Source of the DNA: Marsupella aquatica
Taxonomy: Eukaryota > Plantae > Marchantiophyta
Assembly (NCBI GenBank): GCA_973895155.1
Contig: OZ316891.1
Location: forward strand, 15,345,037 to 15,409,036
Direction of reading: 5' to 3'
DNA: 64,000 nucleotides
In this document: piece after piece, positions 41,061-64,000 of the stretch
How positions within the stretch are numbered: the stretch's first letter is position 1
Layout: every line of letters begins with the position of its first letter
Notes under the pieces: model-generated
What the model was told of the DNA's origin: nothing
What the model saw: the letters and a program-made list of their open reading frames with translations, nothing else
Database searches by the model: none
Made by a program: the position numbers and the translations under genes

Positions 41061-41319
41061 TTTAAGGAAAACCAAACTTTGGAAATTCTGAAAATCACTA
41101 AATATTATTATTTTAATAAAAAGGGGGCAACATGACGCGTGGCTGCGCGTGAAACCCTGAAAATGACTGCAACGTCACATTTTTACCAATCCAACTTGAC
41201 GGGACCAAGAGACATGCTCACGCGAATAATAATAATAGAGAAATAAATCTTTGAGATCCTTTATATATGATAACCAGTATATAAGGAGTTTACAAATAGT
41301 TTCTAGAATGACATACAAA

Positions 41320-42842
41320 TTAATCTGATCTCATGCCGACTATTATTTTGGAAGCGTCCAAAATTGGGCGTCTGTTAAATTGCTCTACTAGATATCTATC
41401 TCCATGCCTCTGAATCACAGGGTCTTCCCATAGAGTATGATTATAATCATAATCTCTAAAAATAGATTTAACTGACCAATCTGAATAATCTCTTCCATTG
41501 GCAATGACAAGCGGCTCACAAGAGTTTGCTAGCTTGCTAAGATACGGAATCAACAAGTTAATCAGGAAACTGTCGTCGACCGACCCAAAATATTTGGGCG
41601 GAAATAATGATCCAACAACAGGATCTAAACAAGCATGAAATGCATCGGATTCGATAAGCATTATATTTTGCTGCAGATACGCCTTCGTATAAATTCCAAC
41701 CTTCTCAAAACACTTCAAAAATATCCGCTTATTTGATGTCACCCCATCGCATAAGTAACAATGAGACTGATCCCAAATATACTTAAATGAGGCCATTTCC
41801 ATCGCAGTAAAAATAGATGCTAAAATCTGATCTAAAAGGTTCTTCCCAAGAGAGGACCAGATCCCTACATCGAAATTCTCAAAACAGAATCTCAAGAATT
41901 CGTGAAGATGAGGCCTTGGAAAAACGTATATATTCCCAATCCGAATTCCAGTTGAGACCGCCATCAGTCGGGAATGCGGTGCAGTGTAACAGAGTAGATG
42001 CTCCACGTCTAAAACTATGAGCCCATTTTCTCTGCTGCAATGAATCTCCTGTAGAGAAACACAAGAAGATGCATGAGCCCGTATGGATGTAGTCACGCGA
42101 ATGGTCGCGTCACATATTACAGAGAAAAAATCCTCTACACTCTGGCCATTGATAAGTGACGTCTGTTGAAGTGCTTGATAAGAACTTGATCCGCATGTCT
42201 CTGCACGTACAGATGCTCCCATATATCCTTGTTCAGATCCCAATCTCGATGTAGATTTCTAATCGACCAGATGGGATAATCGAACTTGTTAGCGAACGCA
42301 AGACAAAGCCTTGAATTTGATAGCTTTCGTAAATATGGAATGAGGTCATCCCTCAAAAAGACATCATCCAACGATCCTTGAAACGACTTAGCGAACAATA
42401 ATCCGCATACAGCTGTCTGGCATGTATGGGAAGGACAGGCATCAATCTGGATTATATTCTCTGGTCGATAATCTTGAAACATATCACGTAGTCTCTCGAT
42501 AGATTTGAAGACAACAGTCTTATAATTTTTCTTCACATAACCAAGATTCCAGCAATGATCCCGCGTGAACACATATATCAGCTGCGATAGGTCGGTGCTC
42601 GACAACACTTCTGAAAGTATCTGATAAACCAGTTTATCGTCGAGAATAGACCAGACCATCACATCAAAATGATCATAACAGAATTTTATAAGATCATGAA
42701 GATGCGGCCTCGGAATGACACATAGAGATCCGATATGAATTCCGGGTGTCGACTTGAGCTGAGGAGTATATTTTGAAACAGAGCACAAGAAGTTTTCCAG
42801 TCCTAAACCTAGAAGTTGACGTGACCTGCTCCACTTAGACAC
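41320..42842 (-). CDS. Two tandem degenerate FCP1/SCP (NIF) HAD phosphatase-like domains (exons 42842-42141 and 42048-41320); possibly the tail of the upstream large gene
   Basis: Motifs PRPHLHDLIKFCYDHFDVMVWS, VVFKSIERL, PENIIQID and PRPHLHEFLRFCFENFDVGIWSS, YIWDQSHC, RIFLKCF, QNIMLIESD. A phase-0 GT-AG intron at 42140-42049 joins ...HLSMAR|EIHCSR in frame. The DxDxT motif is degenerate in both (LGLGLEN, VLDVEH). Confidence 0.8.
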
Positions 42843-42967
42843 CTGTAAATGAACAATTTGATTCTCATATTATGCAATTGCAAACAACCACGTGACCGGG
42901 CACGTCACTCCCAAAAGTTCAATTTCAATCAATTTATAAATAATAATTGATAATAAACAATAAACGT

Positions 42968-43873
42968 TTACTTATTGGACTTATCCCGAGCTTCTATAGC
43001 ACGGTCTTTCTTGGCAGATAAGTATTTCATAAATTCGTCAAACTTTTCTAAATGGTCTTTATTCCCCTGATTACGAATGATCACGTTTCTCCTCCAAAGA
43101 TTCGTCTTATCAATATAATCTTTCTCAAGATTTTCTTGAGAGAACGTTGGAATCCCATATCCACTAAGGAGCTCACGGAATGTCAACTTGTCAATTGACA
43201 TGTCGCATAGATATGGATATAGTTTCTTTCTAAAAAATAGGTCATCATCGAGCCCAGAATATGCATCGGGATAGAGCGATGAATAGAAGTCATTAAGGCT
43301 CGTCTTATATGCAGCGTCATCGATAAGAATGACATTCTCGATGTTGTAATCTTTAATATCGGCGGCAATGTCCGAGAGACATTTGACAAATAAAGGGATG
43401 TCATTATTATTCTTCCCAATAAGTCGAGTTGATTCTTGTCCCCATATAAATTTAATACGTTTCAAAACTTCGGGTCGAAGTATCAACCTTACACAAGATA
43501 GAATATTTTGTTTGAACATGCACGACCAGATCGCAATGTCGTATAGATCTGCCACCTTCTCAAGAAATTCCATTAAATGAGGCCTTGGATAGATAACCTT
43601 GTGCATCTGTCTCACACCCCTTGATCGAATGGGCATCCCAGGTCTGATCTTCTCTGACCAGATAAGTACCCGATTCAGATCAAAAATTACAAGTCTCTTC
43701 TGAACCGGTGACTTCTTTGCCGATGGATTAGGCGCCATCTGTACCTGTGATTTTTGTGCCGCAGGGTTTGGAGAACGTACTAGAACGGTCTGTTTGTTTC
43801 CCGCCTCCGGACGATCACCGGACTTCCGGACTGGTGCCTTCGATACTCGATCAGGGGGTTTCGGGATAGGCTT
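42968..43873 (-). CDS. FCP1/SCP-like HAD phosphatase domain exon (DLNxxL subtype)
   Basis: RLVIFDLNRVL, YPRPHLMEFL, YDIAIWS, FIWGQES, LFVKCL, ENVILIDDAAYK. Confidence 0.88.
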   Translation of the reverse strand, partial: KPIPKPPDRVSKAPVRKSGDRPEAGNKQTVLVRSPNPAAQKSQVQMAPNPSAKKSPVQKRLVIFDLNRVLIWSEKIRPGMPIRSRGVRQMHKVIYPRPHLMEFLEKVADLYDIAIWSCMFKQNILSCVRLILRPEVLKRIKFIWGQESTRLIGKNNNDIPLFVKCLSDIAADIKDYNIENVILIDDAAYKTSLNDFYSSLYPDAYSGLDDDLFFRKKLYPYLCDMSIDKLTFRELLSGYGIPTFSQENLEKDYIDKTNLWRRNVIIRNQGNKDHLEKFDEFMKYLSAKKDRAIEARDKSNK

Positions 43874-43959
43874 CTGTAAAACATTAAGAAATGAAAATAA
43901 GTTTATAACGCGAACGGTCGTGTGACTACAAAGAGAGACACTGAAATGAAGTGTATTAC

Positions 43960-44748
43960 CTGTACAAGATGGTCGTTCAGTGCTAGAATTCCACCGGAAA
44001 TGCCAATCATAGCAGCACGGATCCCGGTAACTAGGTTACTTGCGGACGTCGGCTTGCGGAAGTCCATGTCAAATAACGACAAGACTATCTCCCTACGGAA
44101 TTTCTCAATTTGATCCGTGGAAAAATTAATTCCGTTTCCTTGACACAAGCACTTGGCGTATCTCAAGATAAACACACCACAACTGTGGCCATCACTCTGG
44201 TGAGGAATATCATTCCGATATATCTGTTCCCAACCTGAGAGATCCAAGTTGACACCAGTTCTCCAGCCAATTTCGTCGGCGTAGTACTTCCCAACAATAT
44301 CTAGCACCCCAGGATTCTGTCGATTATGAACTAGAGAATCTAGGTACTCCAGCCGTTTCTTCTTCGGATACAAGACTACCAATGACCAATGTTCTTTCAC
44401 AGCATTGTGTACTGGAAAGACCAGTTTGTCGTATTCACTGATTTTTAGCAGAAACTCCTTTGTCCAAGCTGCCCTCTCCTCGTCAAAAATGGTAGGATCC
44501 ATGGAGAGAAGCTCAAAATGGTGTGTTTGGAAGAATTTGACAAGGTCTGACTTTCCAACTCTATCGAGAATCAGTTCGAGAAAACTCAAATAAGCGTTAA
44601 TTATATCATCGGTGAGCAACTCGCGCGGTCTCAAACACATCATATGTTTCCTCTTTATCGAGTGTTGTAAGAACTTGGTCAATAGCTCTTCCATATCCTT
44701 AGAAGGATCAAGGCATTGATCTATTCGACTAGCCAAATTTTCAAAAAA
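43960..44748 (-). CDS. Ulp1/SENP-family (peptidase C48) SUMO protease domain exon
   Basis: LRPRELLTDDIINAYL, KLVFPVH...EHWSLVV, LEYLDSL, IPHQSDGHSCGVF. The His-Asp-Cys triad and the oxyanion Gln are present. Confidence 0.92.
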
Positions 44749-45559
44749 CTGCAAAAAACAGAGATTTCAATACGCCTTCAAATAACGTACTGAGGTTGTA
44801 GCCTAAGGGTTGTAGCCTCAGAAAACAAAAACAATAACAGATCAATAATAAAATAATGACGTCTATAATAGAAACTTTAAGCTTATAGCTTGCGAATGAC
44901 CTTTGGATTGGGTGGATCCGGCCTTTTTGCAGCTGATCTCTTGGGTGCCTCAATCGCAACAACATCCTTCAGCCCTCCTCGAGACCGCAGTGATCGCTCC
45001 ACCGGACCAGTTTGCGAAGGTTGGAGCGATGAGGCGGGAAGACCTTCAAATGGTTGTGGCATTTGATTCAAATATTCCACAATCTGGGAATCCGATTCCA
45101 AAATATCCGGTGCCACAATTTCTACGTGAGTCACCTCTGCAATATATCGAGGTCGAGACCACGAACCCGGTCGCGTCAAGTCAGCTGTTAGTCTCTTAAC
45201 GACTTGAGCCGAGTCTGGTGCCAAAAACGTTCCCAGGTCTGGCACTCGATTCTCGGAAAAGCGCACATTATTGATGATTGTCTCCATTCTGGATGCAGTG
45301 GCAGTCTTCTCCTCGGTAATCAAAAGCTTCCAATATTGCAAAGCAAGGACTGCCTAGACTCGAAGCTACTCCGGTGAATATTTATTCCAATCATCCAATG
45401 AGACTGTACTTAAGGGTGGATCGTTAAATTCAAACTCCGGGCGAAGAAAATAGTCTAATATTTTCTTCTTAATTGCAACTGAGGGTGAAGAAGGCTTCTT
45501 CAAATTTAGCCTTATTTTCGGTAGACGTTGTGCCTCAGGAATAAGCGAAAGATCCTTGG

Positions 45560-46200
45560 CCCTCTCGGCCTCCTTCCTCGCTGCCTCCAGTCTTGCGGCT
45601 TCTTCTCTCTCCAGTCTTGCGGAATCGACCTTTTCTGCCTCCAACTTCTCCGCCTCCACCCTCTCTGGTCTTGCGGTCTCGTCCGCCATCCTCTCGGCCA
45701 GCAGCCTCTCAGCCGCCACACTCTCCGCCTTGGCCCTATTTTCCTCTGTCACTAAAAGGACTCTCGCAGCCTCCGCGTTCTCGGCCTTCGCTTTCTCCGC
45801 CTGGGCTTTCTCAGCCTCCGCTTTCTCAGCCTGGGCTTTCTCAGCCTCCGCTTTCTCCGCCTGGGCTTTCTCGGCATCCGCTTTCTTCGCCTGGGCTTTC
45901 TCGGCATCCGCTTTCTCCGCCTGGGCTTTCTCAGCCTGGGCATTCTCAGCCTCGGCTTTCTCCTTCTTCTTCGCGGCAGTTGCTTTTCTAGCTGTTGCCT
46001 TTTTCTTCTTAACCTCCTTCTTTTGAAGCTCCTCTTGTCGGGCCGCATCCTGCCGGGCCGCCTCCTCCAGCCTGGCCGCCTCCTACCGGGCCGCCTCCTC
46101 TCTGGCCTCCTCCTGCCGGGCCGCCTCCTCTCTAGCCTCCTCCTGCCGGGCCGCCTCCTCTCTGGCCTCCTCCTGCCGGGCCGCATCCTCTCGGTCCACC
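45560..46200 (-). repeat. Coding tandem repeats (EEAARQ/EEAR and AEKAQ/AEKAE units) forming a coiled coil
   Basis: 15-bp units such as TCAGCCTCCGCTTTC and TCCGCCTGGGCTTTC at about 45770-45960. 30-bp units CCTCCTCCTGCCGGGCCGCCTCCTCTCTGG at about 46050-46190. Confidence 0.9.
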
Positions 46201-48059
46201 TCATGTCGAGGCTCCTGTGTGGCCTCTTCATCAAAGTCCTCAGCGTCCTCGGAACCCTCCATCTCCTCGTCCTCTTCATCAGCGTTCTCAATGTCCTTCA
46301 TCTCCTCTCCGTCACTCTCTTCATCTCCTCTATTGTCGGAATTTCCGACGTTGTTCTGCGTATCGGTCATCCACTCTGGATCTTGGTCATTGACATCCCC
46401 ATCCGCGTCACCTTCCACGTCATCTTCCCCCTCACCATCCGCATCACCATTGCTCCCTGCATCCTCAACATTGAAGCCGCAGTCGACTTGATCTGAATAA
46501 AATCAGATCATTTGATAAGAATGACTCACGCGCATATTCGCGTGAAAAGAAATGTTATGAATGTCCACGCGCATGTTCGCGTGACGCAATAAAAAGTAAG
46601 AGGTTTCAAAAGTAACTTACCTTGGATTGGCCCACTAGGGTACTCCGTTGGTCGAATGTACAATCGATCGGAATCTTCAGAGAGTGCATACTCTTGCAAT
46701 AATTGATTACAAATATTATCAGGGATATGTTGTTCGTGGAGGACATCCAAAACATCAGCCCTGAGAGCAGTTACGGATGGACGGTACTTCATTAATTTAT
46801 CTATACATTTTTCTATACTAGCCCGTACTGGGTCAATCAATGACAGCATTGTATCAATTGTCGTCGTGGTGTGTTGCAAGAAACAAGACAACTCCCTATG
46901 CGTTGCCACAGGGTAGTAATATTTTACATTGGATCCAGCATCCCGTAAAAAAAGCTGAAATTAGTTCACAATATTAATTGAGAATATAATAATCTAAATA
47001 ATCTTAAAATCGAAACCCCAAAATATAAATCTCAAAACTTACCATTAAGCACTGGATCAAGTTCGTTCCCTCACCGAAGCATATAGCCCATTCCCCACAT
47101 TGGATGAATTGACTAACAATACTTTCAAAGAATGGAAGTATCTTTTCTGGGGAAGGTGTCGTGAACTCGCCGCTCTCTTCAAAATTGGCTATCTTCTCAA
47201 TCTGATATTTGGAGACCAATTGGAACTCGAGGGCTTGTGGATCGCCCATTGTGCTGAAGGCCAAGCTGTGAAAAGCGTAAGTTACAATAAGCTTCTTCTC
47301 CTTCGGCCGCTTCTGAATATAATGGCTATCGACAGCAACGTAGTGTGTGTACTTCCCTAATTCCCGTTTGATTAAGTAAGACTCAACGGGAGAGGCTACA
47401 ATAATAACCACATGGTGTGGTTTTGCCCCTATCTCGCTAGTAGCACGAAATAACCCCTCATAGAATGAGCAATTTGGCGGACGCAAATCTCCCATTGATG
47501 AGGGATCAAAATAAATCAAGCTCGCAAGGTTCTTGTCTTCACGTATGATACAGTCTGCAAACCCAGCATTTTGTATATCCTGCAGGGATCGCAATTTCAA
47601 CCTCTCACCGACCGGCTGCACTAGTTGGTTTCCTTGACTATCAACTGATTTCTGTATTCCTTCGACCAACCTGTAGAATATAGGGTCGATCTCCTTCAAC
47701 AAATTATCATTACTAATATTTACATTTAACACTAGTACATATTAAGCTGATTTTCGATGCTCAATTTTTGCGAACAATCGGCGTCCGATTCTTTTAGCAT
47801 CGGAAATTCCGATTATCAAAAAATGGCAATATGCCATACTCTCGGCTTTGAATATCTTCATTTCCGATATAATTGACAACGGAACCTTTCCGATGCGTTA
47901 AAAAACGGATCATATCTGTTAGAAAACACATCGGATCCCTCAACAAAAACTTTGATTGATATGTCCGATGTTTTTTGTAACGAAAATGATGTGCGTTACA
48001 ATATTGATCGGAAACTTTCCGTAGTTAATAATAACGGATATTATATCCGATTGTGCTAA

Positions 48060-48216
48060 CATGGCAAAGTCCGATGTTAGGAGAATGGGAAAGTCCGATG
48101 CTAGAAGAATGGGAAAGTCCGATGCTGGAAGAATGGGAAAGTCCGATGCTGGGAGTATGGGAAAGTCCGATGCTAGAAGAATGGGAAAGTCCGATGCTGG
48201 GAGTATGGGAAAGTCT
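48060..48216 (+). repeat. 21-bp tandem repeat (GAATGGGAAAGTCCGATGCTA-like), CACTA subterminal
   Basis: About 7-8 copies, with an inverted counterpart at 49063-49245. Confidence 0.95.
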
Positions 48217-49062
48217 GGTTATGACAAAAAGAAATTTTTTGATTGTGTTAGAATGAAAAGTTTTGATGTGTTAGATGGGGTATGTGGTTGCACCGATATA
48301 CTCTTCCCAAAAGATGCAATCATTCTTGCATGCATGAATAACTTCATACTTGAGGCAAATGGACTTGAGTGTTGTTTTTGCCTCATTCCAAGACCCAACA
48401 TATTGTTCCCTTACGGAAATATGTGCTCTACATGCCAAGTCCAAAATACATCATCTAGAAGGAGGTTGCTTGTCCCATGTAGTCTTTGTTGCAAGTCCAA
48501 CAACAACATAGTTGATAAAAGATGAGACAATCAGGAGCCATTGACGCTGAGGCTTTGGAAGGACCAAAATATCATCCATAACTAATAAGCCATAATTATC
48601 CCATATCAAATCTAATGAAGGAGGGCTTTACTATCGATGAATGACCCCTGCCAGATTTCTATTGGTTTCTCCTAGGGGAATGTAATAGGGTAACTAGAAT
48701 AGGTCACTTGATGCAAAGATCTAATCTCATGATAGAGAAAAATGGATCAAGAATGGGTCCAAATTATGGGTCTTAGTAAACTCACAAGTGTATAAAATCC
48801 CCAAACACTCTAAGTCAAACAACAAAAGTGCTAAGCTTGCATGTACAATGTAAGGAATAAGAACCACAAAGTTAAGCTCATGTTGGAGGAATAGCAATTG
48901 GGATGGGTGACCAATTAGTTGAGAAAATTTGAAGAGTTCACATGTCAAGGGAGATGGGCACCTAGCTCATAGTTCCAAATGAAAGTAGAAACCCAATTAA
49001 AGGAAGAGATGGGTGACCTGAGCATGTCGCGTCCGCTGAAATGCATATCCCATTTTGATTGC

Positions 49063-49245
49063 TTCGGACTTTCCCATTCTCCTAGCATCGGACTTTCCCA
49101 TTCTCCTAGCATCGGACTTTCCCATTCTCTCACCATCGAACTTTCCCATTCTCCTAGCATCGGACTTTCCCATTCTCCCACCATCGGACTTTCCCATTCT
49201 CCCACCATCGGACTTTCCCATTCTCCCACCATCGGACTTTCCGAT
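49063..49245 (-). repeat. 21-bp tandem repeat (CATCGGACTTTCCCATTCTCC-like), inverted partner of the 48060 array
   Basis: About 8-9 copies. Confidence 0.95.
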
Positions 49246-51423
49246 AGAAGTCCGATTGTCGATATCCGATACTATTAAAATGGCATGTTGCGATGCTAGT
49301 AGTATTGGATATATGGTTTTTCAAATTTTATTTTACAAAGGTGTCCGATGTGGAGAGAATCAAAAAAAGGAGGTAAAATGTACTAGTGTAAGCACTTCTT
49401 CAGATAACCACTCAACGCATCTCTCAACTGATTCAGGACCATCTTGTCGAGCTTAAAGCAATCAATCATTCCTTTGACCCGCAATTTCCGCGCTGAATCT
49501 GTCAGACTTTTCAGCTCCATCCAGGTGGATGTTTCCCCATTGAGTTTACTCAATAATAAAATCTCAAACTCAACTTTCGTCTTCTTCTTTATACAGAATT
49601 GCTCCAAACTCATGCTGGTCGTTGACAACACTGGAGCCTCAGAGGACTTCCTCGCCTTCCCAGATTTCACTTTGATGCTTCAGTTTTTGAGTATAGACAA
49701 TCTTCCGCTCAACATATATTCCGCTGCCTTTCGAAGAACCGAGTCTGAGCACCCTTGACAAGAACGGAACGTCTTCTTCAGAAGATGATAAGCACACGGA
49801 TTATCCACAATTTTGACGGCGTCCCTCTGTAAAATTCCGTTGTAAATTACAAGCTCTCCTGTCCTTGATAGTTCGTAGACCTCCATCCACTTCTTGAATG
49901 TTTCGTCCTCCATTGTAAAGAGAAACGGAGCCAATTCTCCAAATTTCATCATTTCGTTCTTCCCCATTTGAGCCCATGGGCAAACAAAACTCGTAGCTCT
50001 CATAAATACCTGAAAAACAATGGAAACATGACAATTCTAAGCTTGACGCGACCAGTCGCGTGATAAAAGTTTACACGAAAATGTGATCGAAGAGGGTTAT
50101 TTATATACCTTCCAATTTGGATGACGATAATGTGATCCAGGCCGCCCAAATGAGTTCCAGATATTACGATACTGTCGTACAATGGTGAGAAACTGTCCTT
50201 CTTCCATTGATGTTTGATGACAGTGGTTCAGAGCTTTCCATAATCCCATCAAATGAACATTATTGTCGTTGTTGAGCGTTGCCCAAAACATTACAGCTTC
50301 TACAGTACCGCAAGCGTCTCATACAACTTGGCTGACTTTGTCGTCCTCTCTCAGCAATTTGTACGCCATTATTGTGTGCTGGCCTCCGAGTATCCAGAAA
50401 TGACTGGTCATAATGTCCTCCTCCTTTGGCGATGAATCGTAGGGCGTCCCATTGTAGGCGGGATCTCTGTCGGCCTCCGACTGAACCCACTTCACAGGGA
50501 CTAAAAAGCAGCATCGCTTCTCGAACTTTATAGCCGAATGAGAGAGGAGTGAATTCTTTAGCCTATCTGTGTAATCATGATTCCACTCTCGGCACTTGAT
50601 GTGGTCCGGTGCAAGATGACAACGTGATGTCTCAACAAAAAATGACTTGCTGTTAAATATATTCACAACACTATATTCTTTGAGGAAAGAATCGAACAGA
50701 GCCCCGACATTCGCTGAGGTAATTACTTTCGGAAGATTCTCCGCCGAGTATACTTCAACCTTGCTAACTGGCGGGGCCTTTCCCAAGCGAAATCCCTGGT
50801 TGAAAGGAACTCTCTGGAACTCAAGTACGTCAATAATATATTGACAAATCAAATCTCCCGTTGATGCCTCTGGATCGGAAGGATATCCCACACTAGTAAC
50901 CTTTTCCAAGGCGTGCCTTGCACCTAGAAGATAATCGATTCTAGGCTGATTGAAGGTTACATATTGCGTTCGATCCAAACAAATACTTATTTTGTCTTCC
51001 TGCTGGTCGTCGCTGACTAGCAGAACCAATCCCTCTGTACACTCTTTAACTTTCATGTTCTTCTCAAAGAAACACCCGAGAATTTTTGATCTCTCCAAAA
51101 CTGTAGCTTTATCATTTCTTGCCACCACAAGACGGACAACCCCATTGCGAACGACTATTCCAAAATCGGATATCTCAGTCGATTCAAAGAGATGGATACT
51201 CTTTGTCTCCGTTGTTCTCTCTCTGATTGACTTTCCTCGATATGCAAGTATGGATGTCTCCGTGGGAGTCATTTTTGTCTTGGTTTTCTTTCAAGAAGCA
51301 GCTTTAGACGAGTCTCTTTTCCGCTTTGAGGTTCCGGTAGGATCCATTATGAAACAGACAAAATATTGAAAGTTAAACGTTTATTATAAAATACTAACAC
51401 GCGTTTGGTTGCGTCGTGCCGAA

Positions 51424-51954
51424 TTACATTTTAGGAACATTTATCCTGACCCAATCTTCTCGCTCATCTTCATCTAACCAAAACCAAAGGTTCCTAAACG
51501 TGTCAAGTTCAGATCCTTCAAATCCACCCAGAATATCCAGCGGCGGGAGAGTTCTGATGGATTCTGTAAATCTTAATGCTACACTCCGTGAAGTCAAATG
51601 CCTTCGAAGCGATTCATATCCTGGTCTATCAGTGAAGTCGTAAGCTACCAAGGTGACTGTCGCCCAAGTACCACTATAAGTAACTATGTGGCACCACTTC
51701 TTACTGACTGTTCGAATGGCGATCAAGTCCATGACCCGATTTTTAATCGCAGTATCCGACAAATTCCCAAGACAGTGGAAAAACTCTTTGACTAATGGCC
51801 AAATATATTTCTCGACAATATCGTCCGGAAGACCGGGTATCAGGTCTTCAGCTTGACTCCATATCATGTTTCGGTTCATAACCTTTGCACGTGCAATGCG
51901 CTCCATCATCATTTGACGATGAGATTTTCGATTCATGTCAAAGGACTGCAGCAT
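51424..51954 (-). CDS. F-box-like protein (paralog 1)
   Basis: LIPGLPDDIVEKYIWPLV ... IRTVSKKWCHIV, an F-box signature split by an insertion. Confidence 0.62.
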   Translation of the reverse strand: MLQSFDMNRKSHRQMMMERIARAKVMNRNMIWSQAEDLIPGLPDDIVEKYIWPLVKEFFHCLGNLSDTAIKNRVMDLIAIRTVSKKWCHIVTYSGTWATVTLVAYDFTDRPGYESLRRHLTSRSVALRFTESIRTLPPLDILGGFEGSELDTFRNLWFWLDEDEREDWVRINVPKM

Positions 51955-52153
51955 AATATGGAAAATATTAAGAACAAGAACCTATCCATTAAGAACTGGG
52001 ACCACCGAAATTCTGAGAAAATCTACCAAACCTTTCGATTAGGACATCTCGTTCTTCCTCATCTAAATTGTTATATTTGTTCGTAAACAATGCGATTTCG
52101 TCAGAAGTAGTAGTCCCAAGAACAGATATTTCTGGAAGGATAGAAATATCCTG

Positions 52154-52555
52154 TCAAATAACTCGACAGACTGAGTCAAACTCCAACTCCTCAGTTTCGG
52201 GTATGTCGTAAAGAGCATCATTTGCGACATCGACTATCCGGTTTGCTTGTTTGAGGATAGCCCATAACCTTGTATTTGTAACTAAAAAGTTCCACTTCTT
52301 GCTACAAGCTCCAAGCCGAATAAGGTCTCGGACCCTATCGATAACCAAATCGTTATCGAGGTGTCGATATCCACGCAATCTTTCAATTGAAATAAAGTGT
52401 TCGTAGAGTATTGGCCAAATGTTTGAAATGACCAAAACATCTGGTATTCCTCCAATGAGACTAGAGGAGGTTTCATCCAGCGTATCCCATATTGTTTTCT
52501 GTTTCTTTTCATGAGATGAAAGGAAATCTCGAGCCTCATTCAAAAGTTGGTTCAT
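52154..52555 (-). CDS. F-box-like protein (paralog 2)
   Basis: LIGGIPDVLVISNIWPIL ... LGACSKKWNFLVTNTRLW. Confidence 0.6.
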   Translation of the reverse strand: MNQLLNEARDFLSSHEKKQKTIWDTLDETSSSLIGGIPDVLVISNIWPILYEHFISIERLRGYRHLDNDLVIDRVRDLIRLGACSKKWNFLVTNTRLWAILKQANRIVDVANDALYDIPETEELEFDSVCRVI

Positions 52556-52620
52556 CTTGCTTTTATCATATCACAAAACATTGTTAGAAGACATACGACG
52601 CGCTTGGTCACGTAAGTTAA

Positions 52621-53208
52621 CTAGAATTCTTTAAAAGCGTAGATGTCACCCTCAAGGTATCCAATTTCGTGGCATCTGACTGTAAATTTCCATTTTTCAA
52701 GAGGGTGAAGAGCATCGTAAGTCTTCGTGAAGAGTTCCCTAAGATCTCTGGACATTGACCCCATGAATTTAATTCTTGGGTATTTCTGGAAGAAACTTTG
52801 AACTGTCGATGAGAGAGACTCATTTCCGATCGGTTTAGTAGGATTTCCTGGGAAAGCCAAATCTAATAAACTCAACTTGATTACACCCAGAAGATAGGTA
52901 TTCCCAACAAGGTGGCGCCATCTGCGACACACCGAAGATAGTCCTACAAACTCATCCAATTCCTTTATTGAGAAATTTCCTGCATTAATCGAGGAATTAA
53001 AAGTCTCCTGGATCCGAGGCCATATCAATTCCGTGACAATAAAATCTGGAAGTCCTGGTAGTAGTGTTTCAACAAATACAGAATATCCCGCAAGTAGACC
53101 ATCTTGGCTTCTGTCCAAAATGTCAAATATTGGGCATAGATATCTGAAGCTCTCCAGACCAGGTTCGCCCATGACTCTTTTCAGCCAAATGATATATCCC
53201 AGATTCAC
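52621..53208 (-). CDS. F-box-like protein (paralog 3)
   Basis: LLPGLPDFIVTELIWPRI ... LSSVCRRWRHLV. Confidence 0.62.
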   Translation of the reverse strand: MNLGYIIWLKRVMGEPGLESFRYLCPIFDILDRSQDGLLAGYSVFVETLLPGLPDFIVTELIWPRIQETFNSSINAGNFSIKELDEFVGLSSVCRRWRHLVGNTYLLGVIKLSLLDLAFPGNPTKPIGNESLSSTVQSFFQKYPRIKFMGSMSRDLRELFTKTYDALHPLEKWKFTVRCHEIGYLEGDIYAFKEF

Positions 53209-53269
53209 GCGACTGGTCGCGTCTACAAATCAGAATGCATAAACAATTCTTTGATAGATTGATCATAAA

Positions 53270-54125
53270 TGTCTTCGTCCTCTAACAGAACCAGTCAATG
53301 AGAGAGCAACCTCAGACGCGACTGGTCGCGTCAACTGAACCTAAACAACTATATCCACTGAACCTTATGTGGAGATTTGGATATGGTACGCGCTCAGTAA
53401 ATCTATCCAGTTTCCTTCTCACACGCGACTGGTCGCGTCAACTGGTCCTAAAAGGAACCTTACCTCCTCTAACAGAACCAGTCAATGAGAGATCTACGTC
53501 AGACGCGACTAGTCACGTCAACTGGTCCTAAAAGGAACCTTACCTCCTCTAACAGAACCAATCAATGAGAGAGCTACCTTAGACGCGACTGGTCGCGTCA
53601 ACTGAACCTAAACAACTATATCCATTGAACCTTTCTTGTGGAGATTTGGATATGGTACGCGCTCAGTAAATCTATCCAGTTTCCTTCTCACACGCGACTG
53701 GTCGCGTCAACTCGTCCTAAAAGGAACCTTATCTCCTCTAACGGAACCAGTCAATGAGAGAGCTACCTCAGACACAACTGGTCGCGTCAGCTGAACCTAA
53801 AGAACTATATCCACTGAACCTTATGTGGAGATTTGGATATGGTACGCGCTCAGTAAATCTATCCAGTTTCCTTCTCACACGCGACTGGTCCTAAAAGGAA
53901 CCTTACCTCCTCTAACAGAACCAATCAATGAGAGAGCTACCTGACGCGACTGGTCGCGTCAACTAAACCTAAACAACTATATCCACTGAACCTTCCTTGT
54001 GGAGATTTGGATATGGTACGCGCTCAGTAAATCTATCCAGTTTCCTTCTCACACACGACTGGTCGCGTCAACTGGTCCTAAAAGAAACCTCATAGTATTT
54101 TCACGCGACTGGTCGCGTCAACAGC
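53270..54125. repeat. Compound tandem repeat (about 80-250 bp sub-units) rich in the ACGCGACTGGTCGCGT palindrome
   Basis: The block GTGGAGATTTGGATATGGTACGCGCTCAGTAAATCTATCCAGTTTCC occurs 4 times and CCTCTAAC(A)GAACCA(G/A)TCAATGAGAGA about 5 times. Confidence 0.95.
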
Positions 54126-55290: not shown

Positions 55291-56714
55291 CAGGCGTGCA
55301 AAAGTCTAGGGAGCGAGAAACAACAACAATGAACAATGAACTCGAGACCGTGGGCGCCGACACTAAGGAAGGACTAATTAGGGTATTGTTTTAGCATAAC
55401 CCTAATAACAGCCTAGCGACATTAAGGTTCCAGATGATCTCCGTACACTCCACCATCGACTGAACAAACTATGCAATCGTGAAAAAAAGATTACCGGATT
55501 TTTTGATTTTCCGTACTAAAGAAGATTTCTATTTGATCGCCAATTTGAAATTTAAACCGGTAATTATGCAACTGCGAAAGATTGTTAGTGGGGACCCCCG
55601 GATCCGGATCCGTATCTTCACTATATCTGCCAATTCAAATCCAAAATGTGAACGGACGACAACTTTCTCATGATCGTTCCATCACGTAGTGGAGGCAAAC
55701 TTTGAAATCATTCCATTTTGGTAGTGGAGACCGTCGGATCCGGATCCGTACTCCACTCTCTATCTTGCCAATTCAAAACCTTACTCTAAACGACGTAAAA
55801 CGATTCTCATGGTCGGGGAGAACCGATATTCAAAATCAATCCTGTACAATGATTCTCACGACTGGAGACTCAACCAATTTTCAAAATCAAAATCGAGTCC
55901 AAATGAACACATCCTCCATGGAGTCAATAGACTGATCTCATTGCTCACGGATCATTCTTCATTTTCAGTTTCTCCTGACCAGGATACCAGCTAGGCTCTC
56001 AACGGAGGCTGATCCAAGGCACATTTGAGGTGGAGCAGATTGGATCATTCGACTATTCCAGTCAGAGGCGGAGCTCATTCAAGCAACGCTGGCGCAGTTC
56101 TTGTTGTATCACCTTCAATCTTGGGGAGAGCACATCCGATCAAGCGGGAGAGTTGCGACGAAGCGAGACGACAAAGATTTAGAACCTCCATAGTCTGCCT
56201 CATTCATCGAAGCATTCTAGCGGACCAACAAAGAGCGGCTATTCTGAAATCACTGTCTGGTCGAGGATTTTGATCTTGATACGATCAACAAGTTGTCATT
56301 CTCTGGTGGTGGGATTCGGTCACGATACTCAAGGAAATTGGAGTTCGAAGGAGGAGGCTTAGTTGGCTGGGATGAGGAGGAGGCTACGCTGGAAGGAAGA
56401 GGCTTGGCTGGGAGGAGGGTTTCCGCCAACATCGGAGGGTTGCCGCCAACATTGCTGAGACCACACACAACTGAATAACTTGTAAGTATCAATCAGCATT
56501 AATTCCGCAATAAATGAGGAGAGTAGTTGCCTTAAATCATGCATTCAATGCATGAATTGAGTCAATGAACTTATGGTCCAATTTCTCACTCCGATTTTGA
56601 TCAATCCGTGTTTCAAGTCCAATACAGAAGCAATGTATAAGAAGTACTAGTAGAGGATCCGAATGAATTCTCTAGTCTAAAATTGTATGGCGTACGCGTA
56701 TAGTTGTCCGTACG

Positions 56715-58170
56715 TTTTGCTATTGTTTATTGTAGTCGACGGCCTAGCAAAACGAAACGTAATCGAGGTCCATTTTTCAGATCTTCCTGATCTCAACTTG
56801 TTAGTAGGATGACCTATTTTTTGGTTACACATGTAGTTCGTCACGCGCACAGTCACGTGAACCAATTTATCTCGTGTCTTTTGATATTGTTTATTGTAGT
56901 CGATAGCCTATCAAATTGGCCAGCAATCTATTTTAAAACCAACGTCTTTGTTTCATCACGCGCACGGTCGCGTTAATGTTTTAGAGGTCAGCGAAAGCTC
57001 TGCACTCTTAGACGTAATCGCCCCTTTATTTCTCAGATCTTCCTGATCTCAACTTGTTAGTAGGATGACCTATTTTTTGGTTACACATGTTATTCGTCAT
57101 GCGCACAGTCGCATGAACCAATTTATCTCGTGTCTTTTGATATTGTTTATTGTAGTCGATAGCCTAACGAATTGGCCAGCAATCTATTTTAAAACCAACG
57201 TCTTCGTTTCATCACGCGCACGGTCGTGTTAATGTTTTAGAGGTCAGCGAAATCTCTGCACTCTTAGACATAATCGCCCTTTATTTCTCAGATCTTCCTG
57301 ATCTCAACTTGTTAGTAGGATGACCTGTTTTTTGGTTATACATGTAGTTCATCACGCGCACAGTCGCATGAACCAATTTATCTCGTGTCTTTTGATATTG
57401 TTTATTGTAGTCGATAGCCTAGAAAATTGGCCAGAAATCTATTTTGAAACCGAGTTCTGATTCACGCGGCCGGTCGCGTTAATGTTTTAGAGGTCAGCGA
57501 AAGCTCTGCACTCTTAGACGTAATCGCCCTTTATTTCTCAGATCTTTCTGATCTCAACTTGTTAGTAGGATGACCTGTTTTTTGGGTTACACATGTAGTT
57601 CATCATGCGCACAGTCGCGTGAACCAATTTATCTTGATATTGTTTATTGTAGTCGACTGCCCAGCGAATTGGCCAGAAATATATTTTAAAACCGAGGTCT
57701 TCGTTTCATCACGCGCCCGGTCGCGTTAATGTTTTAGAGGTCAGCGAAAGCTCTGCACTCTTAGACGTAATCGCCCTTTATTTCTCAGATCTTTCTGATC
57801 TCAACTTGTTAGTAGGATGACCTGTTTTTTGGGTTACACATGTAGTTCATCACGCGCACAGTCGCGTGAACCAATTTATCTTGATATTGTTTATTGTAGT
57901 CGACTGCCCAGCGAATTGGCCAGAAATATATTTTAAAACCGAGGTCTTCGTTTCATCACGCGCCCGGTCGCGTTAATGTTTTAGAGGTCAGCGAAAGCTC
58001 TGCACTCTTAGACGTAATCACCCTTTATTTCTCAGATCTGCCTGATCTCAACTTGTTAGTAGGATGACCTGTTTTTGGTTACACATGTAGTTCATCACGC
58101 GCATAGTCGCGTGAACCAATTTATCGCAGGTCTTTTTGATATTGTTTATTGTAGTCGACAGCCTAGCAAA
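56715..58170. repeat. Tandem array of about 6 units of 240-256 bp, each with two ACGCG-N6-CGCGT variants
   Basis: GATATTGTTTATTGTAGTCGA recurs at about 56883, 57139, 57394, 57636, 57883 and 58138. Confidence 0.96.
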
Positions 58171-58375
58171 TTGTCAGTCAGAGGAATCTCGATTTTTCCT
58201 TGATTGCAAAAATGGTTACATCGATCCCGAAGGACTTCGGATGTGGAATCCATATCCACTAGCACTATCCAGGAATTTAAGCTACATAGTATCTATAACA
58301 AGTTCTAACTTGAACTACTCTTGAATCTGTAGTTCTAATCTTCAACTACTCAAAATATTGTTGACTTCGATCGAG

Positions 58376-58918
58376 TCAGTCATTCCAAGATGAAGGCATC
58401 CACTCATCGGTGTCTGGTGTGGATTCCCTTGAATCCATAAATTCTTCCTTTGCCCAAGTCCTAACGTCCATAGATTTTCTCGGCTTTCTCTTTCTATAAT
58501 ACAAATCAGAATCTTTGTTCATCTCTAATTGCCTTTTCTTTGGTGCGTCCACTTTCTTGGCCTCCTTCTTGACTGTCTTAGCGTCTGCTGCTGCTTCCCC
58601 CGAAATGGATTTGACGCATGCTCTGGCCTTCAACTTCTCCCCCCTCAAAACAGATTCCACGAGGGCTTTGCCCTTTAACTTCTCCCCTGATGCCATCTTT
58701 GTAGTCATCTCTGTCGGATTGGTCTCCATCTGATCTTCCATCGACAAATGTGGTGAACAATGTTGTCTCTCACAAAACATTTGACCCGATTTAGTCACCA
58801 TAAATATTATATTACATCGTTGACACATTCTGTAAGGAGTACCATGAATTCGATACGTCGAACCTTCTTAATCGTCCGTCGGAACATCCTCATTCTTTGA
58901 GCTCAGCGGAGTAGTCAT
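58376..58918 (-). pseudogene. Small Cys- and Lys-rich protein of unknown function, one in-frame TAA at 58868-70
   Basis: MTTPLSSKNED...*...RMCQRC...FCERQHC, a basic stretch RKRKPRK and an acidic C-terminus DTDEWMPSSWND. It is oriented divergently from the transposase. Confidence 0.45.
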
Positions 58919-59279: not shown

Positions 59280-60000
59280 CTGTCCACTCATTTTTCCTGA
59301 GTGGAGTTGAAATGATTGTCGTAATCGATTGTAGTCGTTCTCATTCACTTGAAATGACTGACGGACCATGCATTATCTTTACCGGTATGTGTGATGCCTT
59401 TAGATCCATAATTGTATCTTCTTGTCTCGTGCGCAATCGTATCTTACTTATGAAGTACCAATTACGAGCTAGAGTTTGGGCCTAGCCTTCTAGCTTCTAC
59501 GTCGTAGACCCTGTACCCTCTGACTAAGGTCACGCAACATGCCTTTAGATCCATAATTGTATCTTCCTGTCTCACGCGAAATCGTATCTTACTTATGAAG
59601 TACCAAGTACAAGCTAGAGTTTTGGCCTAGCCTTCTAGCTTCTACGTCGTAGACCCTGTTATCCCTACACCCTCTGACTAAGGTCACGCGACTAGTCGCG
59701 TGCAGGGCAGTGCATTGACTACATTCTGCCTACTTATTGACGGTTGTGACAGGACAATGCAGTTCACGGATGTTTTACTGGCGCTTATTAGCACTATTGT
59801 CCTCAGTAGTTACTGACTGTCCACTCATTTGTTCTGAGTGGATGTAAAATGATTGATCGTAATCGATTGTGGTCATTCTCATTCATTTGACATGACTGAC
59901 GGACCATGCATAGTCTGTTTCCGGTATGTGTGGTACCTCTAGGGTCACGCGACCAGTCGCGTGCAGCGCAGTGCATTGACTACATTCTGCTTATTGACCG
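59280..60000. repeat. Duplicated blocks upstream of the transposase
   Basis: TGCCTTTAGATCCATAATTGTATC at about 59395 and 59540. TGTCCACTCATTT...CTGAGTGGA at about 59281 and 59818. GGTCACGCGAC(T/C)AGTCGCGTGCAG at about 59682 and 59943. Confidence 0.88.
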
Positions 60001-60089
60001 ACGTGACAGGACAGTGCGGTGAAATTGACGGACGTGACAGGACTGTACGCTTACAGTGATATTCTCTGATGTGCAGGATCATAATTATT

Positions 60090-63000
60090 ATGGTGACATC
60101 GACAGTCTGGATCAGGGAAGGCGGACAAGTTATTATAGGCATACGTGAGAAACAGGTTGGAAAAGGTCACGTGATAAGTCTTGATCCTTCCAGGGTTTGT
60201 CACAATGTTCCTCTTGGGGCGGACAGAGTTCTTCTTCTATTGGAGGAAGTTTTTGACGAGACCATTCTATGCGAAGATGGCAAACTTTTGAAGGACATGA
60301 TTGGGGGTTACCTTGTATGGGAAAGGAATCAGCTTTTTCGAGCTCCCATGGAATCGAAGGATGTGTTTGGCACTGTTGGTGATGATCAAGATCCAGTCAA
60401 TCAAAATTCTGATGGGAACAACCATAATGAGAGTCGGTCTGGTGTGGAAGTAGTTTTACCAAAGGCCTTGTGGATGGGCATGCCTGTAAAGGTGGTGGAT
60501 GAGAACAAGTTGATTTTTGCAGTGGCAACTATACATGTTCTAGATCCTATAGTCAAGCTTGGGGATGTCACCCTTGGGAATACACATGTGGGAATTCTGA
60601 TCAACAATTTTGTCGAGGGAGCTACCATAGATCATCTGAAGCATAGAGATTGCTTAAAAGCTTGGTCGATGGACCAACTCATTGCCAAGGATGGCAACTT
60701 GTTGTCTTTCCACAACATCAGGCAACCTGTGGGAGGGAACACATCTCCAGCAAGTGGTAAGCGGTCCTACGTCCATAAAAGTAGGAAAAGAAAGAGTCCA
60801 TCTTCCCAGACATCTAGAAGAGACACATCTTTGGCACGTCAAGATGTGTTGTTGATAAACACTAAGGATTGTTGTAGTGAACATTGTTGCCAATATTTGG
60901 ACCGCAACTTGGCTATGGCAATTAGGCAAAAATGGTGGTCAAAATCTTTTGCGGAGCGCAAGGAGGAGGAAATCAAGGCTATTAAAAATACAATACACTT
61001 GGGTATTGGAGAAAGGATTCTAGCAGTGGAGGGCAAAGTATTGTGCTTGGAGGCATGGAGAATCATTCATTCAAGAGGAAAGACTCAATTTTATGCCTTG
61101 AAGAAGACTGTGATGGCTGGAATGAACATAGGTACCCCTGGTAATGCTGGAAAAAGGCGTATGTCCGAGAAAGTATCTCAAGCGTTCATGTCAATGAAAG
61201 AGATTATTGAGGAGGCAGCTGATCATCATCCAGCCAAGTTGAGAACCATGGCAGATAATACAAGGATGGTTTTGAGGGAATTGCCAACAAATCTTACTTG
61301 GGAGAATATTAGAAACAGGGTTAATGTTGTCAACCAGGAGGCTGGTCTTCCTCCAATTTCCCAACCCACCTTGAGTCATCTACATCAGATGTATTTCAGG
61401 GAGTTCTCATGTCACAAAAAGGGAAACAACTTTTCAAAGTGTACAACTTGTAGTGAGTTGCTTCAATGGAAAGCAAACCTTACAGGAGCTAAGGAAGAGT
61501 TAGAGGGCCTAAGGCGTGACGAGGAGGAACATCACCAAGACCACACACAGCAAAGAATGTGCTATCATACCTGGAGATATGAGTCCATCCATCGTCCAAA
61601 GGAAGTGTTATGCCTTATTCATGATAAGATGGATCATTCAAAGACAGCTCTCCCAAGAATGCCCTTCAATCCTAAGCATGTGGATGGTGCCCAAAAGTTC
61701 CCAATTACTGTCACTGGTATCCTTACTCATGGTCATGGTCCCAAGGCCATAGCCCAATATCATGTTGGAGTGTGGCCAGGTGATGTCAACATCACTATTG
61801 GGTCAATTGATTCAATACTAAGGATGTTGGAAAACCCAAATCCAATGATCAAATCACTTGTGGAGGGGCCAGACTCGACAAGTCTTTTTAAAGACCTCCT
61901 TTTTGGGAGAGCAGATATCTTGGAGGCAAGTGTCCTTAGAGCATTTGAGGATGACATTGCCTACATCTCAAGCCTAGGTACTTTACTCACAATCCTTTAA
62001 TTTATTATTATTTAATAGTATAAGCTCACACACACTGACACTCTACTTTGTGTAGTTGTTGCTCCTCCTAGCCAAGGTTTCATTAATAGGGTTTAAACCC
62101 TAAACCCTAAATTGGGGTTTAGGGTCTGACTAGGGTTTTATTTAAAAGCATTCTGAGATTGTTACATTGTGATGCAGCACCTGAGGCACCGAAGTTCAGG
62201 CCCCTTCCACGAGTATTGAAGCTACAACTGGATAATTGTGCCTCAGACAACAAGAACAGATATATGATGGCTTATTTGTCATTGTTGACGGCAAGGGAGG
62301 TGTTTGAAGAGGTTCATCTTGGTTTTATGGTGGTTGGGCATACTCATGAGGACGTTGACGGTATGTTCGGGCATTTTTCAGAGTCTATGATGCATAACCC
62401 CACATACTCATTGCCTGAGTTAATGTCCTTGTTCATGAGAGCAAGGACACCCAATGCAGTCCCACATTTTCTATAGGAGGTCCCAGATTTCAAAAACTAC
62501 TTAGCTCCATTCATGTTGAAGGGCCCTGAGGCATTGGTGGGGCATTTAAAACCCAGGCTGTTTAGGTTCTATGTTCGTCATGATAGTATGCCATGCTTCC
62601 AATACAAAATGAAGTCAACTGATCAGGGATGGTTACCCAAGGAAGGTATTGAAATGTGGTCATGGAAAGATGACAAAAGTCCTCACATCCCAATTGGGGT
62701 GCCCAAACGGCTACCAATGATGGAGTTGAAAATGCTTCCTGAAGTGCTGACAGGGTTGAAGAAGCATGTGTCATTCTTTGAGTTTATTCTAAAGCGAACA
62801 AAAGAGGAAGAACCAAAGTGACGTTGGACAACTCTCATCAATTATTGGAATGACATTGTAGATACTCTACAGGGTGAGCAGGTGCAATATGAACCTGAAG
62901 GTGCACACAACTTGGAATACGGGTTTTGGCCTTTATCAATATGGAGAGAGCACGTTCCACCAGAATATCGAAATGTGGCATGTGAGTTGGAGGCAACAGT

Positions 63001-63466
63001 GGATTATGTGGGACCAGCAAAAGATAAACCTCCTGAGAGTTTTAACCCTAGGGTTGATGTTGTGAAGGGCTGTTATGTGTTGGTACGGCCGGACGACTCA
63101 CACCTGGATGTTTATCCCGTCCATATGGGGTTAGTTGTTACAGATGTGGTAGAAGGACCAGTGAATGAACAAAACCTTCTTACTCATGTATGTGGCGTTG
63201 AGTGGTTTAGACCATTTATGGCAAAGAAGCAACGTGGTCAATCAGACTGGCAGCCAAGAGAGCGGTGGGCAGATTCTTGGGATAAGAAATGGGAACGTGA
63301 TCCATCTCCAATATACAAGGAAGCTGAGACAATAGATGTTTCCTCTGCCTTGTGGTGTTTCAAAGCACGCAAAGGACCAGTGACAGGGCTGGTAGGAATT
63401 CCAAAGAATGTTGCTGTCAAGGCAAGAGACTATCTCTTGACATGCATAGCAAGTGACAAATCCTAG
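60090..63466 (+). pseudogene. Sola1-like / DUF7869-type RNase H-fold (DDD) transposase, spliced, with two in-frame stops
   Basis: Exons 60090-61977, 62056-62076 and 62178-63466, all phase 1 GT-AG. Motifs CCSEHCC, FSKCTTC, LCLIHDKMD, LKLQLDNCASDNKNRY and GFMVVGHTHEDVDGMFG. Stops TAG at 62474-76 (HFL*EVPDFK) and TGA at 62819-21 are in frame. The superfamily assignment is from memory of the motifs. Confidence 0.8.
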
Positions 63467-63539
63467 ACAGTAATGAAGCATGTAGTTTAGCATATAGTTT
63501 AAAAGGCAACTCAGAATAGTAGTAGCCAGAGAACTCAAG

Positions 63540-64000
63540 TTTAGACAAGTCTTATCGTCTAAGTTAGTTAGTTGGTTAGTTTATTTAAGATATAATATTA
63601 GTTAGTGGGGCCTTAGTTTGGTGATATATATTAAGGCATGATATTATTGACATTCAAATGAATGTCCAGTAGACATTGTAATATACAACAATCCTATTAA
63701 TAAATAATAATTATAGTTACACCCTCAAGTGAACTCAACTTTCAATGATTTATGATTTTATATGGTTCCATGCCTGATTGAGTCAAAGCAATAGAAACTA
63801 ACTAATTAAAGGGTGATACTATAATTGTAGGTCACGCACCCTGGTGCGTGTCAATCTTTTTTGTATTCAACCTATAGTAATTAAATAGACAAGTTAGTTA
63901 GTTGGTTAGTTTATTTAAGATATAATATTAGTTAGTGGGCCCTTAGTTTGGTGATATTAAGGCATGATATTATTGACATTCAAATGAATGTCCAGTAGAC
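63540..64000. repeat. AT-rich direct repeat downstream of the transposase
   Basis: AAGTTAGTTAGTTGGTTAGTTTATTTAAGATATAATATTAG...GAATGTCCAGTAGAC occurs at about 63561-63675 and again at about 63891-64000. Confidence 0.85.

Follow-up and report, generated by a model that had tools for sequence, protein, structure and literature searches.

Count and geometry of the palindrome

The question raised by this locus, a 64,000-nt stretch of contig OZ316891.1 (the window), is what maintains, and what reads, a short palindrome that recurs throughout the non-coding DNA of a transposon. The palindrome, ACGCG-N6-CGCGT, lies in a multicopy DNA transposon of >21 kb (a nested insertion excluded), in which F-box, ParB-fold, linker, Ulp1 and HAD sequences are encoded on the minus strand and a DUF7869 transposase on the plus strand. 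The sites are probably bound by the ParB-fold protein of the element, whatever the effect of binding. That this putative binding keeps the cargo cassette open and low in CG methylation is proposed more tentatively.

Exact copies numbered 20 in the window (shuffle mean 0.01), and 29 sites were found with no more than one mismatch (shuffle mean 0.21); all nine single-mismatch copies differed by CpG transitions. With up to two mismatches, 34 sites were recovered within 41135-63849, and the 3 matches in 1-41000 each carried transversions and were regarded as chance matches. A profile scoring matrix was derived from 18 motif sites. The 34 sites scored 16.1-33.1 bits, and no other position exceeded 6.7 bits, or 5.7 within 1-41000; only ~16-18 of them are independent, the remaining ones being tandem copies. 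A first-pass annotation of this DNA had estimated ~30-35 copies, with none in 1-41 kb. The profile agrees (34 sites, all in 41135-63849), and every coordinate given in that annotation was a real site.

Half-site pairs (ACGCG...CGCGT, non-overlapping, at most 30 nt apart) were spaced exactly 6 nt in 20 of 20 cases. The site consensus is a 20-bp palindrome, TCACGCGACC-GGTCGCGTGA, consisting of a 16-bp core and one or two outer bases per side. As this 20-bp consensus is itself palindromic, the spacer is biased rather than free; the spacer had been described as fixed in length and variable in sequence, of which the first part stands and the second does not. The bases adjoining the core are preferentially C/G on both sides, yet they pair in only 6 of 18 sites, a preference that would fit base reading rather than a stem. 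The arms of the core are invariant, while the sequences on either side, compared for 16 independent sites, show no relationship (mean best identity 0.31).

Placement in introns, spacers and arrays

Introns are predictions from splice signals and reading frame only. Non-coding DNA held 33 of the 34 sites. In the cargo block, of which 9.3% is non-coding, 8 of 9 sites were non-coding (p = 4.5e-8), and a site was present in 5 of the 7 predicted cargo introns, as previously counted; this holds for the cargo gene under the present gene model, and the transposase intron has no site. The accompanying claim that exons are avoided applies to 33 of the 34 sites, but not to a palindrome at 45161..45176 that had been overlooked. 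It lies in the open frame of the predicted low-complexity linker exon and splits a 2.6-kb gap. With the nested insertion removed, the dispersed cargo sites are spaced 0.6-1.8 kb, with one pair 39 nt apart. The longest stretches free of sites measure 2.7 kb (54.1-56.8 kb) and 3.9 kb (across the transposase).

The first palindrome (41135..41150) lies 3' of the last HAD exon, close to where the element begins on the left. The next three are in predicted introns: 42095..42110 in 42049-42140, before HAD3; 42890..42905, with two CpG transitions, in 42843-42971, before HAD2; and 43908..43923, whose one mismatch is private to the window copy, in 43874-43959, before HAD1. Two palindromes (46528 and 46567, spanning 46528..46582) share the predicted intron 46493-46620, and another (50046..50061) is in the predicted intron 50011-50108, directly after the ParB-fold exon; the open reading frames (ORFs) of five relatives stop or diverge at a WKV position matching this intron. 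Two more occupy the short stretches, spacers or introns, that separate ORFs: 51399..51414 in the 74 nt dividing F-box ORF 3 from the ParB-fold ORF, and 52598..52613 in the 64 nt dividing F-box ORF 1 from F-box ORF 2.

Other sites are in tandem duplications. Array 1 (53207..54118, subunits of 80 and 107-109 nt) starts 1.9 kb upstream of the start of the ParB ORF and carries 10 full sites and one truncated (53879), where ~11 had been counted; for array 2 (56772..58173, period ~247 nt, 5.6 copies), the count of ~11 was accurate, with 11 sites at two per unit. A 261-nt duplication preceding the transposase gene carries two palindromes (59686..59962), and a degenerate one (63834..63849) lies downstream of this gene, inside a 330-nt duplication. 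With motifs masked, neither array had any sequence in common with the other or with the 59.7-kb duplication.

The distance from the motif end to the 3' end of the intron or spacer was 34-49 nt in 7 of 7 motif-bearing introns/spacers. Three sites sit between a stop codon and an ATG 35-49 nt onward, in spacers that may be introns. The better arm was 5' relative to local transcription at 12 of 13 untied independent sites (hand count, post hoc), or at 13 of 14 (p = 0.002) when site 54103 was counted separately; this polarity is one point for a transcript-linked role.

Selection on the palindrome

Each of the three HAD exons, which are only 25-38% identical to one another, is preceded by a motif-bearing intron, and the position of this intron relative to the domain is identical for HAD2 and HAD3. 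The motif, kept before diverged exons, has therefore outlived the remaining intron sequence, which implies selection. Together, these observations support a fixed-geometry palindrome under selection in the non-coding DNA of one multicopy element, as read from the sequence.

CpG content of the cassette and the transposase gene

CpG counts were made with motifs masked. Cargo exons held 388 CpG against 445 expected (observed/expected, o/e, 0.87) and transposase exons 47 against 151 (0.31; p = 5e-14), with o/e of 0.61 in the host gene and 0.54 in the copia interior elsewhere in the window. The fraction NCG/NCN at synonymous positions was 91/437 (0.21) for the cargo, 10/212 (0.047) for the transposase, 38/438 (0.087) for dynein and 30/219 (0.137) for copia. 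The transposase gene (60090-63466) is thus both palindrome-free and CpG-depleted. The difference between 0.87 and 0.31 indicates that the site-bearing part escaped long-term CG deamination and that the site-free part did not, a contrast that would fit local protection from CG methylation. CpG retention is in this sense a sequence footprint that predicts a methylation pattern.

The candidate reader

The 34 palindromic sites, with a core of ~16 bp, recur close to a gene for a ParB-fold protein. Its exon (50109..51349, minus strand) encodes a PH-like N-terminal fold followed by a ParB/Srx-fold domain (~50211-50666, GGQHTIMAY), and has one stop and one frameshift in the window copy. Searches with the exon gave 21 relatives at E <=0.001 among 1.84 billion representatives; P0007 and P0020 were excluded from alignments as apparent chance repeat matches. 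No fitting family was found for the exon in Pfam, the alignment matched no PDB sequence, and no full-length relative was found among longer proteins. Neither ParB nor transposase queries found relatives among viral and prokaryotic sequences.

A structure was modeled for a relative, P0001 (7-row alignment; predicted local distance difference test, pLDDT, 62-91 over the domain), which is 38% identical to the window protein over 390 aa and 49% identical over the domain (window 50211-50666). With this model, Srx/Noc/ParB/PadC structures were the top 11 among the Foldseek matches listed (probability 0.90-1.00, E 0.006-0.08). The superpositions gave Z 7.7 for PadC (root-mean-square deviation, rmsd, 2.9 over 100 aa) and Z 7.6 for KorB, the second-best match (rmsd 2.7, 93 aa), and a PH-like fold ahead of the ParB domain gave Z ~5. 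A ParB/Srx N-terminal fold in the element protein thus has moderate support from the model.

The first-pass annotation had named a ParB/methyltransferase-like protein, and fold matches favor the ParB part. For the methyltransferase part, searches were blank or at chance, the call having been based on the by-eye look-alikes DPSS and FGEG; a highly diverged methyltransferase domain in 46621-47730 is possible. A lead from an Atlas RdRP search for this region was dropped for low recognition. The helical exon that follows the ParB domain (49390..50010, minus strand), 40% identical to a Calypogeia fissa protein, is a candidate DNA-reading domain. The liverwort C. fissa (loci CAM6093214.1 and CAM6091819.1) was the only named source of relatives of the element proteins.

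Scanning metagenomes for DNA of relatives yielded 1 locus of 39 pattern matches, a decayed 1.2-kb fragment. Viral contigs scanned with a 20-nt pattern gave 67 loci with a single site each, which were taken as chance.

Proposed mechanism

A dimer of the ParB-fold protein would bind the palindrome with one subunit per arm. Selection would keep or place a site every 0.6-1.8 kb of cargo, in introns, ORF spacers and one linker exon, and tandem duplication would multiply the sites. The long spliced product may join the ParB fold, the domain of 46621-47730, the Ulp1 SUMO protease and the HAD pseudo-phosphatases, perhaps with the F-boxes. Binding would bring this product to the DNA or chromatin of its own element, where it would counter host silencing in the way VANC acts for VANDAL elements; candidates for the effector step are SUMO removal, base modification and simple occupancy. 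That a bacterial-type ParB clamp fused to a SUMO protease and further effectors, loaded at parS-like palindromes in almost every intron and spacer, constitutes a second, independent anti-silencing class in land plants is a possibility, though a doubtful one; long shielding from CG methylation would then have left the cassette rich in CpG as the motif-free transposase gene decayed.

Several observations weigh against this mechanism. With regard to the reader, the match to ParB is of moderate strength: among the matches listed, Foldseek gave no E value below 0.001, Z scores below 8 are common by chance, and the fold was seen in the model of relative P0001 rather than of the window protein. The motif WIxGGQHTIxAY is conserved in 7 of 7 aligned sequences without the arginine patch of ParB (GxxRxxA), through which ParB proteins bind CTP. 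A helix-turn-helix was not found in 49390-50010 (Pfam, PHROG and NCBIfam had no match of note, and the model of the Calypogeia relative was poor, pLDDT 0.36). A methyltransferase was not found in the element with Pfam, PDB, PHROG, NCBIfam or phage tblastn; scores against profiles of 121 phage beta-class methyltransferases were -2.4 bits or worse, equaled by 470 of 500 shuffles.

With regard to the footprint, CpG content was independent of distance to a site. Array 1 has CpG o/e of 0.38-0.55 (masked) and 63.1-63.9 kb, beside a site, 0.14-0.33, and 55.1-55.9 kb, distant from sites, has 1.2-1.3. Motif CpGs read TG/CA at 17 of 136 positions, and C-to-T changes set the window copy apart from the family throughout the cargo; the sites have therefore been methylated at times. 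C-to-T changes were scored for 36 among the 40 listed of 741 differences in the first compared stretch and for 31 among the 40 listed of 152 in the second, with rows of long terminal repeats (LTRs) and minor variants left out. The scored changes comprised at least 5 CG, 9 CHG and 7 CHH in 41-53 kb (one CG in the nested insertion), at least 6 CG and 2 CHG in 58-60 kb, and at least 2 CG, 5 CHG and 2 CHH from the transposase onward. The transposase is also ~1.5x deeper in sequencing coverage, so the histories of the two modules may be partly separate and could by themselves account for the CpG contrast.

Alternative explanations

The ParB-fold protein may instead bind as a KorB-like operator or clamp, regulating transcription of the element's genes or condensing the >21-kb element so that its ends meet, with silencing marks unaffected. 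KorB was the second-best structural match (Z 7.6), the sites recur every 0.6-1.8 kb, three sites precede an ATG by 35-49 nt, two lie upstream of the transposase gene, and no DNA-mark enzyme was confirmed. This reading is nevertheless unlikely: it leaves the CpG retention of the cassette unexplained, the transposase lies within the 3.9-kb gap free of sites, and the arginine patch for CTP binding is not conserved.

Readers of CGCG-type words are known among host transcription factors (CAMTA, bHLH or E2F-like factors), and recruitment of such a transcription or chromatin factor would make the sites intronic enhancers. No site was present across 33 kb of host gene or in copia, and a 20-bp two-fold site with fixed spacing exceeds what these factors need. 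Similar layouts have moreover been reported, in the available text on algal transposons, beside ParB-like genes. Recruitment of a host factor is accordingly quite unlikely, although the arms do hold CACGCG/ACGCG words and the stronger arm is 5' at 12 of 13 untied independent sites (post hoc).

CACTA and hAT elements carry subterminal repeats that their transposases bind, and the palindromes could be repeats of this kind: one site is within ~85 nt of the inferred left end, and sites occur on both sides of the transposase gene. Against this, the majority of sites lie in the interior, within cargo introns as much as ~20 kb away from the transposase and distant from the ends; the transposase gene itself contains none, and depth suggests that some transposase-bearing copies lack this cassette. 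The first-pass annotation had proposed the cognate site of an element-encoded protein, either the ParB-like protein or the transposase. The former is favored here; the transposase is a very unlikely binder because its own gene has none of the sites, which extend over 22 kb of cargo.

An RNA hairpin aiding splicing or 3'-end formation of the cargo transcript would account for the constant 34-49 nt to the 3' end in 7 of 7 motif-bearing introns/spacers and for an arm polarity that runs with transcription, and 2 of 7 motif-bearing segments folded better than shuffles (z -2.7). The other five folded no better than shuffles, Rfam gave no match, and 21 sites are in tandem arrays, outside predicted genes. 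No compensatory changes were seen, with core pairs intact in 16-18 of 18 sites and inner and outer positions paired in 6-11 of 18. Poor folding and the lack of compensatory change favor a double-stranded DNA site over an RNA stem, and the hairpin is highly improbable.

That the copies are remnants of a tiny independent mobile element, a miniature inverted-repeat transposable element, is largely refuted, with a negligible chance of being right: near-identical short words are indeed dispersed, but no consistent target duplication was found around 16 of 16 sites examined, the flanks are unrelated, no copy lies outside the giant element within the window, and the triplicated HAD introns carry the motif at the same relative position, so that the initial view of a fixed half-site palindrome rather than such fragments is borne out.

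Relation to known systems

The binding of a ParB-fold protein to its own element, as proposed here, is compared with VANDAL transposons, algal accessory systems and bacterial ParB proteins. According to the available text of PMC5735166, VANC proteins of VANDAL elements bind motifs in introns, intergenic DNA and tandem repeats, and methylation is removed. The layout here is like that of VANDAL21/VANC21 of Arabidopsis, in which a short motif accumulated in these same places and in terminal non-coding DNA (PMC5735166), and the analogy drawn in the first-pass annotation is upheld by sites in introns, intergenic DNA and three tandem duplications. The element is not a VANDAL. VANC sites are 8-9-nt, non-palindromic and AT-rich with proven function, whereas the present site is a 20-bp CG-rich palindrome with a candidate ParB-fold reader (PMC5735166, available text). 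The VANDAL transposase is Mutator-type and the present one is DUF7869, and no MULE or VANC-related family was matched in the element ORFs by Pfam.

Among algal elements, the 21.5-kb Sola1-1_Ec32 of Ectocarpus is described, in the parts of PMC12477816 available, as having a gene for a ParB-like and N4C/N6A methyltransferase protein opposite the transposase, and self-binding or modification was proposed. The present element is likewise a giant multicopy DNA transposon with a ParB-like gene on the strand opposite the transposase (PMC12477816). Unlike Sola1-1_Ec32, the present element has no confirmed methyltransferase, and it additionally encodes Ulp1, three HAD and three F-box domains; the host of Sola1-1_Ec32 is a brown alga, that of the present element likely a land plant. 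The word 'palindrom' is absent from the main text of PMC12477816, the available parts of which describe no site. Membership of the present element in the Sola1 ParB-methyltransferase type is putative at most. A 2011 book chapter reportedly describes similar proteins in green algal transposons.

In Bostrychia, PAG3 of a red-algal Plavaka/EnSpm element has a ParB-like domain, and adjacent tandem inverted-repeat arrays were proposed as its binding sites; accessory genes such as PAG3 move between transposon families (10.1101/2025.02.11.637652, available text). Tandem inverted-repeat arrays near a ParB-like gene are common to both systems (10.1101/2025.02.11.637652). In the present element, single sites also lie in introns, as opposed to adjacent arrays, and the transposase is different. 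PAG3 is fused to a 2-oxoglutarate (2OG) oxygenase, a domain detected only by HHpred, and the methylase is a separate protein, PAG2 (10.1101/2025.02.11.637652, same text); no Pfam match to a 2OG oxygenase was obtained in any ORF of the element, and that of PAG3 was itself found only with HHpred.

Bacterial ParB/parS, Noc/NBS and KorB/OB systems (structures 6sdk, 7ol9 and 8qa8) share with the element the ParB N-terminal fold and repeated palindromes of similar length. Unlike in these systems, the arginine patch is not conserved, the gene is eukaryotic and intron-bearing, SUMO-protease and phosphatase-fold domains are fused to it, and ParA is missing: no ParA ATPase was found among the 21 element ORFs scanned with Pfam, the right end of the element lying beyond the window.

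The idea that a ParB-like protein binds its own transposon is therefore already published for algae, as a proposal, in the texts available. Self-binding that lifts silencing is there stated to have been demonstrated for VANDAL elements alone among transposons (10.1101/2025.02.11.637652), and the literature found, as far as its text was available, shows no binding site or effect for the algal ParB-like accessory proteins. The literature searched, which covered few subscription papers, yielded neither a case from land plants nor palindromes dispersed in introns alongside a ParB gene; the available text of PMC4738411, 10.1101/2021.02.12.428880, PMC6431247 and PMC5751038 contained no matching system. 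The layout of the element is VANDAL/VANC-like and its parts are like the proposed algal ParB accessory systems, and it is likely a land-plant case with a base-level candidate site, to which it adds evidence of selection and a CpG footprint. With a young, multicopy family and an apparently intact transposase, the anti-silencing reading is testable. If true, a prokaryotic DNA-clamp fold has been reused in eukaryotic anti-silencing, and a compact sequence-specific epigenome tool may be possible.

Structure and copies of the transposon

The element spans from ~41050 to beyond 64000, its right end being outside the window. A copia fragment ends at ~41048-41051 (loose ends), which places the left end of the element between 41051 and the site at 41135. 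From this end, the minus strand carries three HAD/NIF (FCP1-like) phosphatase-fold exons (41320..43873; PF03031, E 6e-15, 2e-10 and 1e-11), in all of which DxDxT, which we take to be the HAD motif, is degenerate. An Ulp1/Peptidase C48 exon (43960..44748; PF02902, E 3e-19) is followed by a linker exon of acidic and Ala/Glu/Lys repeats (44901..46492) with 3 in-frame TAG stops in the window copy, and by the two exons previously called methyltransferase-like (46621..47730), of unassigned fold. With predicted introns removed, the 46621-47730 region, linker, Ulp1 and HAD1 form a single frame of 1433 codons, interrupted by 3 TAG stops; the HAD1-HAD2 junction is out of frame with the best splice sites (donor phase 2, acceptor phase 0).

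Three F-box-like ORFs stand head to tail on the minus strand (51424..53170), 25-33% identical over 94-145 aa, with F-box Pfam matches (E 0.001-0.014) below the curated cut-off. Across 51424-53229, the F-box ORFs and the ParB ORF follow head to tail with gaps of 35-74 nt, in the order stop, palindrome, 35-49 nt, ATG. This packing represents introns of an unusual kind or else a compact cluster of genes resembling those of viruses. The region 54130-56770, possibly the promoter of the cassette or a decayed gene, combines vestiges resembling splice signals with a (GAGCGA)11 run and a stretch rich in CpG. A small Cys/His-rich ORF (58376..58810, minus strand) had no Pfam match.

The transposase gene (60090..63466, plus strand; PF25273, E 9e-31) has a predicted intron at ~61971-62178, within which a telomere-like AAACCCTAAACCCTAA and a partial inverse of it occur (62078-62110). 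The DUF7869 transposase is inferred to be DDE-type. No literature naming DUF7869 was found; the domain is presumably linked to Sola transposases, a link that does not establish Sola membership.

A non-autonomous CACTA-type insertion (47731..49389; CACTAG ends, TAA duplication) is nested in the element and interrupts the ParB gene in the window copy. It has 24-nt subterminal repeats at both ends and a CWG o/e of 0.3, which suggests heavy CHG methylation of the insertion.

Evidence for the family came from near-identical contigs of 4 DNA sequencing runs, the depth of which gives no copy number. Such contigs spanned all 30 bins of both compared stretches in 4 of 4 runs, and contigs lacking the nested insertion (joint at 47726-49389) were likewise present in all 4. 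The transposase stops at 62474 and 62819 are private to the window copy and absent from the family majority, as is the nested insertion, so the window copy is decayed and the family probably intact. In run X1, the depth of the main contigs was 434-492 for the cargo and 598-743 for the transposase, with 19.7 for an identical flank contig; the ~1.5x excess of transposase over cargo (runs X1 and X2) has its step near 59.6-60.2 kb. No more can be read from these depths than that the family is young, has on the order of tens of copies and includes the transposase somewhat more often than the cassette; some copies may have the same transposase with no cassette or a different one.

Flanking DNA

To the left of the element, a dynein heavy chain gene with many short introns occupies 1-33000 (minus strand; Pfam). 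Together with the liverwort relatives of the element proteins, it points to a host plant with flagellate sperm. Upstream of the dynein gene, the interval 33865-34310 contains AACATAAACC four to six times at dispersed positions, along with a TCGCGA...TCGCGA word; the spacing differs from that of the motif. A near-intact copia element follows at 34577-40083 (TCATA duplication, LTRs ~97% identical, one gag stop), whose LTRs have a CWG o/e of 0.1-0.2, and the related copia fragment adjoining the transposon lies at 40594-41050 (minus strand). A ~50-nt repeat present at 59441-59488 and 59586-59638, and inverted at 40153-40200, has many unrelated flanks in the DNA runs and is probably the end of another small mobile family.

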